This document shows positions 100 to 11,202 of a stretch of DNA of 12,872 nucleotides, one piece after another. The notes under the pieces are model-generated. The model made no database searches, was not told the origin of the DNA, and was given only the letters and a program-made list of their open reading frames with translations. The translations under genes and the position numbers were made by a program. Each line of letters begins with the position of its first letter. The stretch's first letter is position 1. Source of the stretch: a virus (lineage: Duplodnaviria > Heunggongvirae > Uroviricota > Caudoviricetes); IMG/VR virus record IMGVR_UViG_2737471845_000023; one strand, given 5' to 3'.

Positions 100-3780
<3,681 letters not shown>

Positions 3781-3806
<26 letters not shown>

Positions 3807-4326
3807 TCAGCAACCCCGGTATCAGTTCATCCAGCGCGGCTGCTTTGTTCATGGCTTTGATGATATCCCGTTTCAGGAAATCAACATGTCGGTTTTCCAG
3901 TTCCGGAAAACGCCGCTGCACCGACAGGGGGATCCCGTCGAGAATACTGGCAATTTCACCTGCGATCCGCGACAGCACGAAAGTACAGAATGCGGTTTCC
4001 ACCACTTCAGCGGAGTCTCTGGCATTTTTCAGCTCCTGTGCGTCGGCCTGCGCACGCGTAAGTCGATGGCGTTCGTACTCAATAGTCCCTGGCTGGAGAT
4101 CTGTCTCGCTGGCCTGCCGCAGTTCTTCAACTTCCCGGCGCAGCTTTTCGTTCTCAATTTCAGCATCCCTTTCGGCATACCATCTTATAACGGCGGCAGA
4201 GTCATAAAGCACCTCATTACCCTTGCCACCGCCTCGCAGAACGGGCATTCCCTGTTCCTGCCAGTTCTGAATGGTACGGATACTCGCACCGAAAATGTCA
4301 GCCAGCTGCTTTTTGTTGACTTCCAT
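3781..4326 (-). CDS. Nu1: terminase small subunit (lambda gpNu1), 181 aa
   Basis: 181-aa ORF MEVNKKQLADIFGASIRTIQNWQEQGMPVLRGGGKGNEVLYDSAAV... recognised as lambda Nu1 (winged-helix DNA-binding N-terminus); sits directly downstream of cos. Confidence 0.97.
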
Positions 4327-4560
4327 TGTTCATTCCACGGCCAAAAACAGAGAAAGGAAACGACAGAGGCCCAAAAGCTCGTTTTCAGCACCTGTCGTTT
4401 CCTTTCTTTTCAGGGGGTATTTTAAATAAAAACATTAAGTTACGACGAAGAAGAACGGAAATGCCTTAAACCGGAAAATTTTCATAAATAGCGAAAACCC
4501 GCGAGGTCGCCGCCCCGTAACCTGTCGGATCGCCGGAAAGGACCCGCAAAATGATAATAA
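4327..4560 (-). other. cos: lambda-type cos packaging site: cosB (Nu1-binding R1-R3 repeats), cosN (12-nt cohesive-end sequence at 4504-4515), cosQ-side flank
   Basis: Plus strand 4504-4515 reads AGGTCGCCGCCC, the reverse complement of the lambda left cohesive end GGGCGGCGACCT, with flanks cccgcg / cgtaacctgtcgg matching lambda. Three copies of the Nu1-binding motif CGTTTCC(T/G)TTCT lie between cosN and Nu1 (about 4347-4365 rev, 4394-4409 fwd, 4441-4460 rev). Confidence 0.9.
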
Positions 4561-4714
4561 TTATCATCTGCATGTCACAACGTGCATCTACGCCATCAAA
4601 CCACGTCAAATAATCAATTATGACGCAGATATCGTATTAATTGATCTGCATCAACTTAACGTAAAAACAACTTCAGACAATACAAATCAGCGACACTGAA
4701 TACGGGACAACCTC

Positions 4715-4948
4715 ATGTCAACGAAGAACAGAACCCGCAGAACAACAACCCGCAACATCCGCTTTCCTAACCAAATGATTGAACAAATTAACATCGCTCT
4801 TGAGCAAAAAGGGTCCGGGAATTTCTCAGCCTGGGTCATTGAAGCCTGCCGCCGGAGACTGTGCTCAGAAAAAAGAGTTTCTTCTGAAGCAAACAAAGAA
4901 AAGAGTGACATTACTGAATTGCTCAGAAAACAGGTCAGACCAGATTGA
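4715..4948 (+). CDS. small ribbon-helix-helix (Arc/MetJ/CopG-like) DNA-binding protein, 77 aa; probable YnfO-like cos-proximal ORF
   Basis: ATG ORF with Arg-rich N-terminus MSTKNRTRRTTTRNIRFP followed by a strand-helix-helix pattern (NIRFPNQMIEQINIALEQKG / NFSAWVIEACRRRL). An equivalent ORF is present at the lambda right end in the same position and orientation, as I recall it. SD is weak. Confidence 0.7.
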   Translation: MSTKNRTRRTTTRNIRFPNQMIEQINIALEQKGSGNFSAWVIEACRRRLCSEKRVSSEANKEKSDITELLRKQVRPD

Positions 4949-5005
4949 AGCAATTTAGATAATCGTGCAGACTACGCCCCCTCATATCACATGGAAGGTT
5001 TATCT

Positions 5006-5416
5006 ATGGATCAGGTAGTCATTTTTAAACAAATATTTGATAAAGTTCGAAACGATTTAAACTATCAATGGTTTTATTCTGAGCTAAAACGTCACAATGT
5101 CTCACATTACATTTACTATTTAGCCACAGAGAATGTTCATATTGTATTAAAAAATGATAATACAGTGTTATTAAAGGGCCTAAAAAACATTGTGTCTGTC
5201 AAATTTTCAAAGGATAGGCATCTTATAGAAACGACCTCTAATAAGCTGAAATCCAGAGAGATCACATTTCAGGAATACAGAAGAAACCTTGCTAAAGCAG
5301 GAGTTTTTCGGTGGGTTACAAATATCCACGAACAAAAAAGATATTACTATACCTTTGATAATTCATTACTATTTACTGAAAGCATCCAGAAAACTACACA
5401 GATCTTACCACGCTAA
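5006..5416 (+). CDS. ydfO: DUF1398-family protein YdfO-like, 136 aa (ORF-track start at 4991 is probably an N-terminal over-extension)
   Basis: [49 protein letters not shown]... recognised as Qin prophage YdfO. ATG at 5006 has GGAAGG about 8 nt upstream. AT-rich, low-GC moron-like composition. Confidence 0.85.
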
Positions 5417-5510
5417 ACCATAACGTCCGGCTTCTCTCACTCCTGAGCCGGACTGCATTGGTTTAATAAAAACCATCAACAATTGTGATTTAGATATTCG
5501 GAACCATTCA

Positions 5511-5540
5511 AATATAACAAAACCCCGTAAAAACGAGGTT
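5511..5540 (-). terminator. candidate intrinsic terminator downstream of gnsB
   Basis: Minus-strand RNA would form a 6-bp stem CCUCGU / ACGGGG (one G-U pair) with a U5 loop, followed by UUUUGUUAUAUUU. Confidence 0.45.
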
Positions 5541-5567
5541 TATGGATAAATTTTATTATTGAATACA

Positions 5568-5741
5568 TCAGATTAAATTAATCTTGACATCATAGCTTTC
5601 AAGACCCGTCATTTTTTCCCGTGCGGTAAACTGAATACTGGTAACTTCTTTCCCGGTCTTTTTCTTAAGTTCAATAATTTTTTTTGTTATATATTCAGAA
5701 ATATCTGCTTCTGCTTTTGTTTTTAAGTTTTCAATATTCAT
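5568..5741 (-). CDS. gnsB: GnsA/GnsB-family small protein, 57 aa
   Basis: ORF below the track cutoff, translated by hand: MNIENLKTKAEADISEYITKKIIELKKKTGKEVTSIQFTAREKMTGLESYDVKINLI. Matches E. coli GnsB (Qin) as I recall it. SD GAGGAA immediately upstream; an alternative ATG one codon upstream at 5744. Confidence 0.85.
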   Translation of the reverse strand: MNIENLKTKAEADISEYITKKIIELKKKTGKEVTSIQFTAREKMTGLESYDVKINLI

Positions 5742-5912
5742 CATTTCCTCTTTTAGTCTGTTATGACTTTCCAGTTACACAGTAAGTCGATTATATGGTG
5801 CAAACGTGTAAAAGATAAGATGAAACATCGCAATAATCAACATACGATAGTCTAAATTTTACACAAACAGACAAAGAAAATTTTCCTGAATTATCAATAC
5901 AATAGCATCAAA

Positions 5913-6143
5913 TCAACTCAAGAGCCTTATTGCTGCTTCCAGAATTTCTTCTGAAGTAACATGTCGATCCGCGGCTACATAAATGACTTTATGATCTCCG
6001 GTCAGAGATGGAAACCCTGCGGCCATTACAGTAAGGTGTGTTTTTTCGCCATTTGGATATTCACGCATGATGGTGTTAACTCCAGTCATCGCTGGCACTA
6101 CCACTGCAGGTTCTGAGTTAAAAAAAACTATGATTTTTTTCAT
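5913..6143 (-). CDS. small hypothetical protein, probably YnfN-like (76 aa from the ATG at 6143; a 51-aa version from the ATG at 6068 is also possible)
   Basis: ORF MKKIIVFFNSEPAVVVPAMTGVNTIMREYPNGEKTHLTVMAAGFPSLTGDHKVIYVAADRHVTSEEILEAAIRLLS. Position between gnsB and cspI matches ynfN in Qin, and the internal Met gives 51 aa, the size I recall for YnfN. No strong SD at either start. Confidence 0.6.
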   Translation of the reverse strand: MKKIIVFFNSEPAVVVPAMTGVNTIMREYPNGEKTHLTVMAAGFPSLTGDHKVIYVAADRHVTSEEILEAAIRLLS

Positions 6144-6185
6144 GATGTTACCGTAGTATGTGAGTATCCATCGAATAGATACCAA

Positions 6186-6208
6186 GCAAAAAAGCTCCCG
6201 AAGGAGCC
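6186..6208 (-). terminator. intrinsic terminator downstream of cspI (UUCG-tetraloop hairpin plus U-tract)
   Basis: Minus-strand RNA GGCUCC-UUCG-GGAGCU followed by UUUUUUGCUU. Confidence 0.6.
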
Positions 6209-6414
6209 TTCATTTTCACTTTTTTAAATCCAACGACAGACGGCTGGCATTTAAGTATTGTGAAATATTATCAAATGTAATCATCATTGATTTACAAAAG
6301 ATACATTTTGCCCCGAAAGGATTCATGTCAGAAACATCAAAAGATGATGTTCTATACTGGGAACCATGACAACACGGGCATCTAAAGTGAATATGGTTTG
6401 TAATATTGTCTACC

Positions 6415-6627
6415 TCAAAGCGCCACTACATGAACAGCGGCAGGACCTTTAGGTCCGTTCTCAATACCAAATTCAACTTCCTGATTCTCAGTTAATGTTT
6501 TGAAATCGTTGCTCTGAATTGCTGAGAAATGGACAAACACATCTTTGCTGCCATCTTTCGGCGTGATGAAACCAAAACCTTTTTCAGGGTTAAACCATTT
6601 CACTAAACCAGTCATTTTGTTAGACAT
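6415..6627 (-). CDS. cspI: cold-shock protein, CspA family (CspI), 70 aa
   Basis: [70 protein letters not shown] with the RNP1 motif KGFGFI and RNP2-like VFVHF; matches K-12 CspI as recalled. SD AAGGTAATAATTATG. Confidence 0.93.
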
Positions 6628-6990
6628 AATTATTACCTTTTGAAGAAATTAGCCCTTGGGCAGAATGGTCCGAAAAAAAATATCAGAGAGAAAAACCAAC
6701 AAGGAAATCTCAAGAGGTACAAATAATAAAATTATAACAATGACTGCTTCAGATAAATTTGTAACAAACCAGAACACCATTAACGCATGATTAACCACCC
6801 ATAGCAAGGATTACTTTTGTAAAGAAAAACACAGCAATGAAAGAATAGCTTTATTTATTAATAATAACGTGTCATTCTGATTAAGACCTTTTATCTTACC
6901 CTTAAGATTTCAGGAATTTTGGCTCATGGAAGAGTCCTTTTTATTTAAATTTTACATTCCGCGATGTAAATGTTCCGATTTAATATTACC

Positions 6991-8014
<1,024 letters not shown>

Positions 8015-8330: not shown

Positions 8331-8546
8331 TTACTCTCCTCTCGCAGCCTTACGCCTGTCTTCTTTAATCTTGAAATAAAGATTTGTCAGATACGTCAGC
8401 AGGCCAAAAACCAGGCTACCCAGCACACCGATTGCAGCCCACTGTGACGGAGTTACTTTATCGAGTAACTGCAATGCCCAGAAACCAGCATTACCCGCCG
8501 ATGTGCCATAGGCAACACCTGTTGTTAACTTATCCATTGATTTCAT
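8331..8546 (-). CDS. essQ: class II pinholin (S21-like) with a dual-start motif, 71 aa (ORF-track start at 8621 is an over-extension)
   Basis: [71 protein letters not shown]: two TM segments, the first Gly/Ala-rich (SAR-like), and a charged C-terminus. SD GGGTGAGGAT before the ATG at 8546. Met1 and Met4 give the antiholin/holin dual start known for S21. Confidence 0.88.
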
Positions 8547-8765
8547 ATCCTCACCCCGATGTACACGGATGGTGCAATATGTTTGAAAAGATCGGAGTCT
8601 ACGGGGTAGTTTTGACAGCACACGTTGTTCTCAACGGCGCTAAAAAAACATACACATTAAAAATGTGGGTAATTATTTTGAAAGAAAGTCATATATAAAA
8701 TAATAATACGAGAAATGTTTTCATATTTAGTGTACTGTATACGGCCATTTATACAGGAAAAGCCT

Positions 8766-8936
8766 ATGTCAGAACGTAAAAACTCAAAATCACGCCGTAA
8801 TTATCTCGTTAAATGTTCCTGCCCAAACTGCACCCAAGAGTCAGAACACAGTTTTTCAAGAGTACAAAAAGGTGCCCTTTTGATCTGCCCTCATTGCAAC
8901 AAAGTATTCCAGACAAATCTTAAAGCTGTAGCCTGA
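8766..8936 (+). CDS. small zinc-ribbon protein (CxxC...CxxC), 56 aa; possibly the Qin small protein YnfU
   Basis: MSERKNSKSRRNYLVKCSCPNCTQESEHSFSRVQKGALLICPHCNKVFQTNLKAVA with two CxxC pairs about 20 residues apart. SD AGGAAAA 7 nt before the ATG at 8766. On the strand opposite to the late operon. Confidence 0.55.
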   Translation: MSERKNSKSRRNYLVKCSCPNCTQESEHSFSRVQKGALLICPHCNKVFQTNLKAVA

Positions 8937-8990: not shown

Positions 8991-9016
8991 ATAATAAAAA
9001 ACCCGCCTGAGCGGGT
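8991..9016 (-). terminator. intrinsic terminator downstream of cspB (a weaker terminator for the plus strand as well)
   Basis: Stem ACCCGC-CTGA-GCGGGT at 9001-9016; on the minus strand it is followed by UUUUUUAUUAU; on the plus strand only UUUGAG follows. Confidence 0.6.
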
Positions 9017-9299
9017 TTGAGATTGTGGTGCTTTTTGTGGGAGTCATCCACTTACGCACTTTGTTTTGCCATGCCAGCAGTTAGCTTCTGCTGTAAAACT
9101 ATTCATGCAGCAAACCTGCACTTCACCACAATGGTTAGCATACTTTTCCTGATTAAGATTTTGCCAAATATGCTAGCCATTGTTTCATGTATTGGACCTC
9201 CTTACTTTTTATTAAAGAGATCCAATATTCACTACTCTGTCCGTATCTCTACTCAGGCATCAGCCTTCTTCGTTATCGTATACAGACGAGCGATGAATT

Positions 9300-9515
9300 T
9301 TAATCAGTAATGATGACATTTGCTGCTGCAGGACCTTTAGCACCACTCTCTATAGAGAAGGTAACCTTTTGACCTTCAAATAAGGTTCGATAATTATCAT
9401 TCTGAATCGCAGAAAAATGCACAAACACATCTTTACTACCATCAACAGGAGAAATAAAGCCGAAACCTTTATCAGCGTTAAACCATTTTACTAAACCAGT
9501 CATTTTATTTGACAT
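9300..9515 (-). CDS. cspB: cold-shock protein, CspA family (CspB), 71 aa
   Basis: [71 protein letters not shown]; matches K-12 CspB as recalled. SD AAGGAA. Confidence 0.93.
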
Positions 9516-9815
9516 TCTACATTCCTTAACTTGAGCCTTTCGGCATAAATGGTTTGCATAACAGAAACGACTTCGTACTTAATTGGAGAGACTCAAAGAA
9601 GGAATAAGTGAATAACACCTGAAATGAGAACTGCTTTAGTAAACTACTTCGTATATCGTCTGTTCTTCAAACCGACGCAATCATTAACGCATAGTTGAAC
9701 ATATGAAGCAATGTTTATTTTAGACATCCAGCCATCTTCAACCCCATCAAAAAACTATAGCTTTCTTCAGGAACGTGTGTATAGTGCGCCAAGTTATCAG
9801 TATTAAGGAATTTTT

Positions 9816-10028
9816 TTGTCCCGTAAAATGACAGGAATTGTCAAAACCTTTGACGGCAAAAGCGGCAAGGGTCTTATCACCCCATCCGATGGTCGTATCG
9901 ATGTCCAGCTTCATGTCTCAGCGCTCAATCTCCGCGATGCAGAAGAAATTACCACCGGATTACGCGTGGAATTTTGCCGGATAAATGGTCTGCGTGGCCC
10001 TTCAGCTGCCAATGTTTACCTTTCATGA
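9816..10028 (+). CDS. cspF: CspF/CspH-type divergent cold-shock-domain protein, 70 aa, TTG start
   Basis: [70 protein letters not shown]: cold-shock-domain fold with a degenerate RNP1 motif, as in CspF/CspH. TTG at 9816 with AAGGAA 7 nt upstream. Divergent from cspB as in Qin. I cannot separate CspF from CspH by memory. Confidence 0.85.
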
Positions 10029-10317: not shown

Positions 10318-10354
10318 CACAAAACCCGCTCATCAGCGGGTTTTCTACTTTTTC
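10318..10354. terminator. bidirectional intrinsic terminator: tR' for the short pR' leader on the minus strand and the terminator for cspF-side transcripts on the plus strand
   Basis: Stem CCCGCT-CATC-AGCGGG at 10325-10340, flanked by TTTTCTACTTTTTC on the plus strand and by UUUUGUGCUUU on the minus strand. Confidence 0.7.
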
Positions 10355-10376
10355 TTAACGTCGGGTATACAAAGCC

Positions 10377-10418
10377 CATCGTTGAAAAAATTTTATCCAT
10401 ATTTTTTGAAAAATGCAA
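10377..10418 (-). promoter_or_regulatory. late promoter pR' with a sigma70-dependent promoter-proximal pause element (Q engagement region)
   Basis: On the minus strand, 32 nt after the Q stop: TTGCAT (-35), 17-nt spacer, TAAAAT (-10), then ttttttC-AACGAT-GGG. The -10-like AACGAT just after the predicted start and the CAACGATGGG string match the lambda pR' initial transcribed region as I recall it. tR' follows about 60 nt downstream. Confidence 0.7.
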
Positions 10419-10449: not shown

Positions 10450-11202
10450 TTATCTCGTCACCTTCCTCAATTGCGCTTCCGCGTATGCTTCTTCCTGCCA
10501 GCACTTTGTTACCAGTTTACCAATGACGTCCGCATACCCCTTATACCACTGATAATCGGTCAGGTCTGGTACCAGCTTCTGGACATGACGTCGTGCCAGC
10601 GTGGTCGGTAAACGACTAAACCGGTTTCCATTACAACGCCCACAAATCTTATATACCGGTACGCCATGAAACCGGGTTCTTTTTTCATCCAGAACAATCC
10701 CTTTACCCTTACACCCTCTGCACGCTGTGCTGGCTTCGCCCTTACCATGGCAATGCTGACATAGTTCCTTCACCCATTCTTCCTTGATTACAGATTCCCC
10801 GCGTCTGTAGTGTTTCACCACTTCGCGCAATACATTATAAAATCCCGTACCTGAACAATGCTCACAGCGAGCCTTACTTGCCGCAGACCTGGAGTAATCA
10901 GCAAAGGCAAAACTCACGAGGTAAGGAATAATCTGTAACCGGATTTCTTCACTCAATTTGTTCAATGTCGGGTTATCCAGTGCCATCGCGTAATTTAGCA
11001 GGCCTTCAATCGCAAACTGAGGGTCCTGAACACCAACTTTTGCCAGAAATAAGGCCAACCCAAGTGGTGCTTTCGACTGCACCATCCCCTGCGCTGCCAT
11101 TACATCCGTAATTGTTAAACAACCGGTGCCTGTCGCTGGAGCGTCATCGCTCAATTTTGGAGATTTTGGGGAGTAATATTTTGGTAAGGCTTCAAGGTTC
11201 AT
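10450..11202 (-). CDS. quuQ: late-gene antiterminator Q (phage 82/21 QuuQ type, multiple CxxC zinc motifs), 250 aa
   Basis: MNLEALPKYYSPKSPKLSDD...CEHCSGTGF...CQHCHGKGEASTACRGCKGKG...CGRCNGNRF. SD GGAGAA before the ATG at 11202; the ORF-track start at 11232 adds 10 residues. Sits immediately upstream of pR' and downstream of ydfU, as in Qin. Confidence 0.88.
   Translation of the reverse strand: MNLEALPKYYSPKSPKLSDDAPATGTGCLTITDVMAAQGMVQSKAPLGLALFLAKVGVQDPQFAIEGLLNYAMALDNPTLNKLSEEIRLQIIPYLVSFAFADYSRSAASKARCEHCSGTGFYNVLREVVKHYRRGESVIKEEWVKELCQHCHGKGEASTACRGCKGKGIVLDEKRTRFHGVPVYKICGRCNGNRFSRLPTTLARRHVQKLVPDLTDYQWYKGYADVIGKLVTKCWQEEAYAEAQLRKVTR

Follow-up and report, generated by a model that had tools for sequence, protein, structure and literature searches.

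What is a small gene doing between the holin gene and a cold-shock gene of a lambdoid prophage, on the strand opposite to the late genes? The question is raised by the virus record IMGVR_UViG_2737471845_000023 of IMG/VR (Caudoviricetes), of which a stretch of 12,872 nucleotides, hereafter the window, carries a 56-codon open reading frame (ORF) at positions 8766–8936 of the plus strand. We find that this ORF is ynfU, a real, translated gene that is already annotated in RefSeq, Pfam and NCBIfam and that has been detected since 2019. We also conclude that ynfU, a terminator hairpin, cspB and cspF very probably make up a self-contained cargo module in the slot between the antiterminator gene Q and the holin gene, a slot that in a sister phage holds stx2.

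Identity of the ORF as ynfU

A preliminary description of this DNA had proposed a 56-residue ORF with two CxxC pairs and a good Shine–Dalgarno (SD) sequence, lying between the cspB terminator and the holin gene and opposite to the late genes, and the sequence bears this out. The coding sequence (CDS) runs from an ATG at 8766 to a TGA at 8934–8936, that is, 56 codons plus stop, with an SD motif AGGA (8754–8757, +) placed 8 nt 5' of the ATG, and it lies between the holin gene essQ (8331–8546, −) and the cspB terminator hairpin (8999–9018). The extent first given to the feature, 8700–8936, is correct at its end and not at its start, as the CDS begins at 8766 and 8700 takes in the promoter region. 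The ORF listing also contains an alternative form of 73 residues beginning at 8715, but annotation and conservation both point to the 56-residue form. Its translation, MSERKNSKSRRNYLVKCSCPNCTQESEHSFSRVQKGALLICPHCNKVFQTNLKAVA, contains two CPxC knuckles (C19-P-N-C22 and C41-P-H-C44) and a fifth cysteine, C17, and is strongly basic, with 10 Lys/Arg against 3 Glu, a pI of about 9.6 and a net charge of about +7.

The correspondence with K-12 ynfU that had been suggested is confirmed. A 1301-bp region containing the ORF shows 100% DNA identity to E. coli K-12 MG1655, in which the corresponding CDS is ynfU of the Qin prophage, annotated as “putative zinc-binding protein YnfU” (WP_211180497.1) and flanked by the same neighbors, essQ and cspB. 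The protein matches Pfam PF23499 (YnfU) with 107.3 bits against a cutoff of 27, covering profile positions 1–49 of 49, and NCBIfam NF038384 with 79.4 bits against a cutoff of 36 (positions 1–51 of 52). Together with the CPxC knuckles, these family matches support the earlier view of a small protein of the zinc-ribbon type.

YnfU came to light in ribosome profiling in which initiation complexes were stalled, and chromosomal tagging with a sequential peptide affinity (SPA) tag confirmed it (Weaver et al., mBio 2019; bioRxiv 10.1101/511675). In SPA-tag immunoblots no other E. coli small protein discovered in that study reached its level, and the tagged protein was seen in MG1655 cultures at 37 °C, in exponential or stationary growth; the same authors had already noticed its two CPXC zinc knuckles and its weak similarity to PA0128 (bioRxiv 10.1101/511675). 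The protein was detected again, independently, by PIRT-seq, a transposon-reporter screen from 2025 (PMC12350097). A missing translation signal and a lack of conserved cysteine pairs in homologous prophages had been named beforehand as findings that would speak against the gene; both are contradicted, with translation shown in K-12 and the cysteine pairs conserved. The papers examined that mention ynfU assign no function to the protein, and are limited to its detection, its motif and incidental mentions in mutation or expression lists.

Selection on the protein and its predicted fold

YnfU is under strong purifying selection as a protein, far beyond what a chance ORF would show. We assembled a species-level set with one genome per species, comprising 80 loci that encode a ynfU relative, 78 of them intact. 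Over the first 50 codons, every one of the 78 intact loci keeps C19, C22, C41, C44 and H28, and 75 of them keep C17. By the Nei–Gojobori method (NG86), the dN/dS of the window gene against 36 orthologues has a median of 0.096 and a maximum of 0.20. Even the distant members from Hafnia, Erwinia, Cronobacter, Mangrovibacter and Edwardsiella keep the pattern C-P-x-C ... S-E-H-S ... (R/K)-(V/I)-x-(K/R) ... L-I-C-P-x-C-x2-L-F. Since these distant members keep the knuckle cysteines but not C17, the predicted zinc ligands are the four knuckle cysteines C19, C22, C41 and C44. The family pattern, CPxC-x18-CPxC with the SEHS loop, is present in the window protein, and between its knuckles lies an invariant S-E-H-S-F-S-R-V-Q-K-G loop with a helix.

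Structure prediction suggests that YnfU folds around a Cys4 zinc site formed by the two CPxC knuckles. The AlphaFold2 model, built from a 53-sequence alignment, has a mean predicted local distance difference test score (pLDDT) of 76, reaching 82–88 in the core, with disordered tails. It consists of a strand (14–18), the first knuckle, a strand (25–29), a helix (30–35) that bears the invariant loop, a strand (38–40), the second knuckle and a last strand (47–49). As modeled, this is a classical, generic single zinc ribbon with its knuckles on beta-hairpins; the fold class is clear, and no function follows from it.

Remote similarity is scarce. A profile search against PDB sequences gave marginal matches to the first knuckle of eL42/L44e (E = 0.0015–0.04) and a weak one to PA0128 (E = 0.08). 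The BFVD search with YnfU returned nothing at E ≤ 0.001, and the PADLOC defense models no family at E ≤ 1. Among PHROGs, no match was better than E = 0.002, the families at that level being of unknown function with no annotated family among them, and none with a transcription annotation was better than E = 0.28. In an exhaustive profile search of 1.84 billion representative proteins, only 42 clusters match YnfU, and the named hits are all from Enterobacterales, save a few records that look mis-binned; the clusters that were followed up bear YnfU-family names. Enterobacterial ynfU loci do occur in assemblies labeled Veillonella, Vagococcus, Kocuria and Bacillota, most likely through contamination or mis-binning.

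Distribution of the family

The YnfU family is confined to Enterobacterales and lives mostly outside prophages. Recognizable Qin-type holin, lysozyme, Q or terminase genes accompany ynfU at just 10 of the 80 species loci, those of Escherichia, Shigella, some Citrobacter, Superficieibacter and Yokenella. Gene-by-gene inspection of eight genera (Klebsiella, Enterobacter, Kosakonia, Hafnia, Cronobacter, Edwardsiella, Citrobacter and Raoultella) placed ynfU among ordinary chromosomal genes. The neighbors are amino-acid catabolism and phosphotransferase system (PTS) genes in Klebsiella; glutathione S-transferase (GST)/tautomerase and transport genes, or the zntB-dbpA-ttcA region, in Enterobacter; and the budR-budABC operon in Raoultella. 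A Citrobacter ynfU paralogue sits between mgtS and dcp; it is divergent, 57 residues long, seen in more than 300 contigs and preceded by the conserved promoter boxes described below (4506–7386 of the examined Citrobacter stretches). In E. coli K-12, the gene beside mgtS is that of the small RNA MgrR, mgrR (Weaver et al.).

Where the gene does occur in phages, its place varies. It stands beside the holin gene in the Qin-type Escherichia phages PhiR42_1, PhiR63_1, Tritos, 2H10 and HannyBb, and also, with no csp gene, in an unrelated-looking Klebsiella phage. In Escherichia phage PHB10, ynfU is found together with a csp gene convergent to it and a cspF-like gene, next to the integrase gene, umuDC and an SOS-response peptidase gene (3501–4625 of the examined stretch). 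Because the whole trio is found there at the integrase end, the three genes appear to move as a block. HannyBb is without cspB; in that phage, about 25 annotated ORFs of about 30 residues fill 3 kb between Q and ynfU (4585–7350 of the examined stretch). A reading of that stretch as a tRNA array was rejected, as ARAGORN found no tRNA in it.

The cargo slot between Q and the holin gene

The gap between Q and the holin gene is a classical cargo slot of lambdoid phages. Phage phiSTEC1575-Stx2k, which matches about 46% of the window at 96% identity, has the same order around the slot (a DUF968 protein gene, antiterminator Q and a class II holin). It fills the slot with three tRNA genes, stx2A, stx2B and an iraM-like anti-adapter gene (1100–5450 of the examined stretch). 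The iraM-like gene immediately precedes the holin gene and runs opposite to it, in the position and orientation of ynfU.

We read ynfU as cargo because it has its own conserved promoter-like element, an SD sequence and a terminator shared with cspB, and because the block recurs at chromosomal sites, at an integrase end and in the Q–holin slot. Several traits expected of a moron can be found. Presence or absence among similar phages, and occurrence in other contexts, is seen in the Stx2k slot, in HannyBb, in PHB10 and in the eight chromosomal genera. Expression from a resident, uninduced prophage comes from the literature on MG1655 YnfU (bioRxiv 10.1101/511675; PMC12350097), and the conserved promoter-like element and the shared terminator hairpin suggest that the unit may be autonomous.

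The surrounding genes are those of an intact prophage. On the minus strand the order is Q, cspB, the cspB terminator hairpin, the holin gene, ydfR, the lysozyme gene, Rz, other cargo, the small and large terminase genes and the portal gene; the plus strand of the same region carries cspF and ynfU. The holin gene essQ (named essD by PGAP) is the first late lysis gene and is divergent from ynfU, while cspB (CDS 9300–9515, −) is convergent with it. The third member of the block, cspF, is at 9816–10028 (+), and the Q antiterminator gene (quuQ/ydfT) at 10450–11202 (−). Compared with the inducible phage PhiR42_1 of E. coli ECOR13, the window as a whole shows 99.4% identity across 98% of its length. 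The alignment with K-12 Qin begins only at 3798, since the terminase and portal genes and what lies beyond them have been lost from Qin. As the portal and large-terminase genes are intact in the window and absent from K-12 Qin, the window represents an intact relative of the cryptic Qin prophage.

Probable signals for ynfU expression and the shared terminator

The promoter that we assign to ynfU was recognized by comparison across genera. DNA upstream of ynfU cannot be aligned between genera except for its last ~65 nt, for which we compared 86 unique sequences anchored on the conserved core, including those of Hafnia, Cronobacter and the Citrobacter paralogues. The consensus is AAt.Aa..c.aGc.AT, a spacer, and gTGTAtgGT.gcag.CC.TT.aa.caGgAaa...ctATG. 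In the window this corresponds to a conserved sigma-70-like promoter at 8710–8738 (+), with a −35 of GAGAAA (8710–8715), a 17-nt spacer and a −10 of TACTGT (8733–8738). Near-invariant in the 86 loci are G(−33) and A(−30) of the weak −35, the T, A and final T of the −10 (of the form TAnnGT) and an A-rich tract upstream, and the SD motif caGGA(a/g) is kept at a constant distance. From these positions we infer that transcription would start at about 8744–8747, giving a 5' untranslated region (UTR) of about 20 nt.

A second sigma-70 consensus match at 8678–8707 (+) consists of TTGAAA, 18 nt and AATAAT (10 of 12 positions). It looks better in the consensus scan but is specific to Escherichia and not conserved outside it, so its status is uncertain. 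Other candidate signals were rejected. A half Zur-box-like sequence upstream of E. coli ynfU, GAAATGTT, is not conserved even within Escherichia, and on inspection of the aligned upstream regions none of the Fur, IscR type-2, sigma-32, sigma-54, sigma-E or sigma-28 patterns fits the conserved boxes. A regulatory hairpin in the 5' UTR, formed in E. coli by a CTGTATA/TATACAG stem over the SD, folds no better than shuffled sequences (z = −0.98); the pairing is not kept in other genera, and the conserved nucleotides fit a −35/−10 promoter better.

Downstream, the terminator scan finds the hairpin AAACCCGC-CTGA-GCGGGTTT at 8999–9018, shared by the convergent ynfU and cspB. It is strong for cspB (minus strand, z = −4.7) and weaker on the plus strand, where its tail is TTTGAGATT. 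A hairpin of the form AAACCCGC-loop-GCGGGTTT between ynfU and a convergent csp gene is found also in Escherichia, Citrobacter, Raoultella/Klebsiella and Superficieibacter, and the same hairpin across genera points to a block moved as a unit; in many Enterobacter-type ynfU loci the perfect hairpin was not found. Overlapping the cspB terminator and the 3' end of cspB is a 97-residue ORF with a TTG start (9017–9310, +), which is probably spurious; an ORF in the matching interval carries a hypothetical-protein label in the PhiR42_1 and HannyBb records.

Linkage to cold-shock genes

By a tblastn criterion, 57 of the 80 species loci, and 64 of the 97 loci in the full set, have a cold-shock domain (CSD) gene no more than 1.5 kb from ynfU. 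Given the nine CspA paralogues in the 4.6 Mb of E. coli K-12, such proximity would be expected by chance at fewer than 1% of sites. The usual layout is ynfU, a convergent cspB-like gene 75–420 bp away and a divergent cspF-like gene, with reduced forms keeping one csp. Clustering of the outer flanks separates about 20 distinct neighborhoods, of which 14 include csp-linked copies.

In the window, Rfam RF01766 matches cspB with its cspA-type cold thermoregulator 5' UTR over 9284–9676 (−), at 158.8 bits against a gathering score of 78. A second match, 112.8 bits and likewise full-length, covers cspI and its 5' UTR at 6388–6773 (−). Both cargo csp genes therefore keep a cold-responsive leader. Immediately 3' of cspI (6415–6627) is ynfQ (about 6217–6405, −), which encodes a YmcF-like protein (Pfam PF23641, 112 bits) with the cysteine motifs CPCC...CIFC; the ORF listing shows only a 36-residue fragment of it because the K-12 annotation starts ynfQ with ATT. 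Homology between YnfU and YnfQ/YmcF is unsupported (hhalign probability 2.7%), and the two belong to different families. In Cronobacter, a YmcF-like gene and an adjacent csp gene lie about 2 kb from ynfU. The 21-residue YnfR, a neighbor of ynfQ, has been reported to be cold-induced (PMC6001520).

A putative late promoter and the antisense geometry

The preliminary description had also claimed that late transcription runs antisense through ynfU, and the geometry agrees with it. Just downstream of Q lies a pR'-like late promoter (10375–10418, −) with a −35 of TTGCAT (10418–10413), a 17-nt spacer and a −10 of TAAAAT (10395–10390). In an alignment with the lambda Q–S interval, this −10 corresponds to the TAAATT of lambda pR'. 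It is followed by a pause element, TCAACGATGGG (10385–10375, −), an 11-mer that is identical in lambda pR' and has the same position relative to the −10. About 40–60 nt past the pR'-like start comes a tR'-like hairpin, AAAACCCGCTGATGAGCGGGTTTT (10344–10321, −), and then GTGCTTT. The hairpin (10321–10344) is palindromic; the terminator scan listed it on the plus strand only, and the minus strand was read directly from the sequence. It would be expected to terminate late transcripts. By its similarity to lambda, where the mechanism is established, 10321–10418 is a putative late promoter segment of the pR'/tR' type; the leader from the pR'-like start to the hairpin is much shorter than the lambda 6S RNA.

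Because this segment lies just downstream of Q, polymerase modified by Q would cross about 1.8 kb of cargo before reaching the holin gene. The predicted path runs through cspF in antisense, cspB in sense, the cspB terminator and ynfU in antisense, and then enters the holin gene. That ynfU would be silenced on induction is a reasonable expectation from this arrangement. Expression confined to the lysogenic state, as the preliminary description foresaw, and a role specific to the phage would both sit poorly with the distribution of the family. Since the family is mostly non-phage and the PHB10 block is at the integrase end, we regard the antisense position as a consequence of where the cargo block landed and not as a defining trait of the gene.

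What the gene may be for

It is almost certain that the ORF is the known gene ynfU and that it is a self-contained cargo gene of host type. As we picture it, ynfU would be an independently transcribed moron with its own signals, not a part of the phage program. Its product would be made in the lysogen to serve the host, and would act in the physiological context of the Csp RNA chaperones by binding RNA, the ribosome or a conserved partner of the host. On induction, convergent Q-antiterminated transcription would probably lower ynfU expression, as a side effect of location and not as the purpose of the gene. The binding role is proposed because of the csp company kept through many relocations, the small size of the protein and its strong basicity. 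Taken whole, that is, as a Cys4 zinc-ribbon cargo gene whose product binds RNA, the ribosome or a host partner in a Csp setting, this explanation seems to us rather probable. As to the role in particular, such binding, within the physiology in which the Csp proteins work, is our leading candidate, though only a tentative one. Somewhat more speculative again is the idea that YnfU is a functional partner of CspA-family proteins, a basic zinc-ribbon binder of RNA or ribosomes active in the same RNA-remodeling physiology, with ynfU > terminator < cspB > cspF as a mobile three-gene “RNA-stress” cassette traveling between enterobacterial chromosomes and temperate phages.

Several observations weigh against this explanation. 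Instead of functional coupling, the csp linkage could reflect co-mobilization of one block or its shared ancestry. By the same tblastn criterion, 23 of the 80 species loci have no nearby CSD gene, including all sampled Atlantibacter and most Kosakonia. Being convergent, ynfU and cspB are not co-transcribed, and YnfU is abundant at 37 °C whereas cspB is cold-induced. The similarities to ribosomal proteins are marginal, and they are inflated by the over-representation of ribosomal zinc ribbons in the PDB. Finally, the ynfU promoter was recognized through conservation alone, its −35 is weak, and the conserved TG is one position off that of a canonical extended −10.

Could ynfU instead be a lysogeny-specific phage gene, shut off by antisense late transcription and serving the phage, for instance by restraining or timing the holin? 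The pR'-like promoter and pause element by Q, and the antisense place of ynfU directly upstream of the holin gene, would suit such a role. So would the presence of the protein in K-12, where Qin is never induced (bioRxiv 10.1101/511675), and the fact that Qin-type Escherichia phages and, independently, a Klebsiella phage have the gene antisense beside the holin gene. We nevertheless consider it unlikely, given that most family members are outside prophages, that the PHB10 block is at the integrase end, that phiSTEC1575-Stx2k does without ynfU while having the same Q and holin types, and that YnfU has no PHROG family and no defense-system match. A quite different possibility is that the transcription unit outweighs the protein, with convergent ynfU transcription and the hairpin insulating the lysis genes from read-through that starts at the very strong, cold-induced cspB promoter, or with overlapping convergent 3' transcripts coupling ynfU and cspB. 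It is true that cspB is oriented as the holin gene is, with one terminator and ynfU separating them, and that the convergent ynfU/csp pair, with gaps of 75–420 bp and a symmetric A-tract/T-tract hairpin, is kept in several genera. But the same arrangement is found where no lysis genes lie downstream, many Enterobacter-type loci are without the perfect hairpin, and the strong purifying selection on the amino acid sequence means that the protein itself is selected, all of which makes this improbable.

Equally improbable, in our estimate, is a zinc finger that binds the transcription machinery, like P2 Ogr/Delta, Elf1, TFIIS or the RpoM-type ribbons. Among the weak Pfam matches are Elf1 (E = 0.018) and the TFIIB zinc ribbon (E = 0.09), and some automatic JGI names of family members are “Elf1”. 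These matches fall below the curated cutoffs and are no better than those to unrelated zinc ribbons. Ogr/Delta is absent among the best 25 of the 30 Pfam families at E ≤ 10, all of which but YnfU are below their cutoffs; nor is the gene placed like a phage late activator, and its family is mostly chromosomal. A part in metal homeostasis, whether in relation to iron or by buffering, chaperoning or sensing zinc, would accord with the Cys4 site and the “putative zinc-binding” annotation, and one preprint lists ynfU with genes rising alongside suf and enterobactin genes. One structural Cys4 site per 56 residues is, however, typical of zinc that stabilizes a fold and not of storage. The upstream half-match to a Zur box fails to recur even among other Escherichia, inspection showed no conserved site of the Fur or IscR type, and the neighboring genes are not metal-related, so that we give this part very little credence.

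As a discovery, the ORF carries little weight, the gene having been annotated and the protein detected since 2019. What the analysis does offer is a set of handles for functional study of the cargo gene that we take ynfU to be: the restriction to Enterobacterales, the mostly non-prophage copies, the csp linkage across at least 14 neighborhoods and the conserved promoter. The locus is also a clean example of a lambdoid Q–holin slot taking up a chromosomal block oriented against late transcription. The gene is carried by inducible phages and by about 30% of complete E. coli genomes (1650 of 5426), almost always in a single copy.

Comparison with known systems

Among small zinc ribbons, the closest in kind is the N-terminal ribbon of PhnA/YjdM (PF08274; P. 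aeruginosa PA0128, PDB 2AKL), which has, like YnfU, a CPxC...CPxC ribbon of similar size. PF08274 is the best Pfam match of YnfU after its own family (E = 1.3e-4), but its 22.4 bits fall short of the 30.8-bit cutoff; YnfU is without a PhnA domain at its C-terminus, and the invariant SEHS...RVQKG loop is peculiar to it. Likeness to ribosome-bound zinc ribbons, namely archaeal/eukaryotic eL42/L44e, eS27 and eL43/L37Ae and the small zinc-finger protein of the M. acetivorans 70S ribosome (PDB 9O17, chain AZ), is marginal and limited to the knuckle. The YmcF/YnfQ family (PF23641), encoded just 3' of cspG and cspI, resembles YnfU in being a CxxC...CxxC protein of about 60 residues encoded next to a CspA-family gene. 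The ynfQ gene shares its strand with cspI, and the two are presumably transcribed together; ynfU and cspB, by contrast, converge. With ynfQ beside cspI as a second case, the pairing of a csp gene with a small gene for a zinc ribbon might be a design that recurs.

As cargo, ynfU compares best with lambdoid morons such as stx2AB. Both the ynfU block and stx2AB lie between the same Q and holin types and are variable among similar phages. The stx genes follow late transcription and depend on pR' and Q, whereas ynfU runs against it from its own conserved promoter-like element, and the ynfU block, unlike stx2AB in this comparison, is found outside phages too. With the YnfU system of K-12 the gene itself is identical, and the difference lies in its surroundings, an intact prophage in the window as against the degraded Qin.

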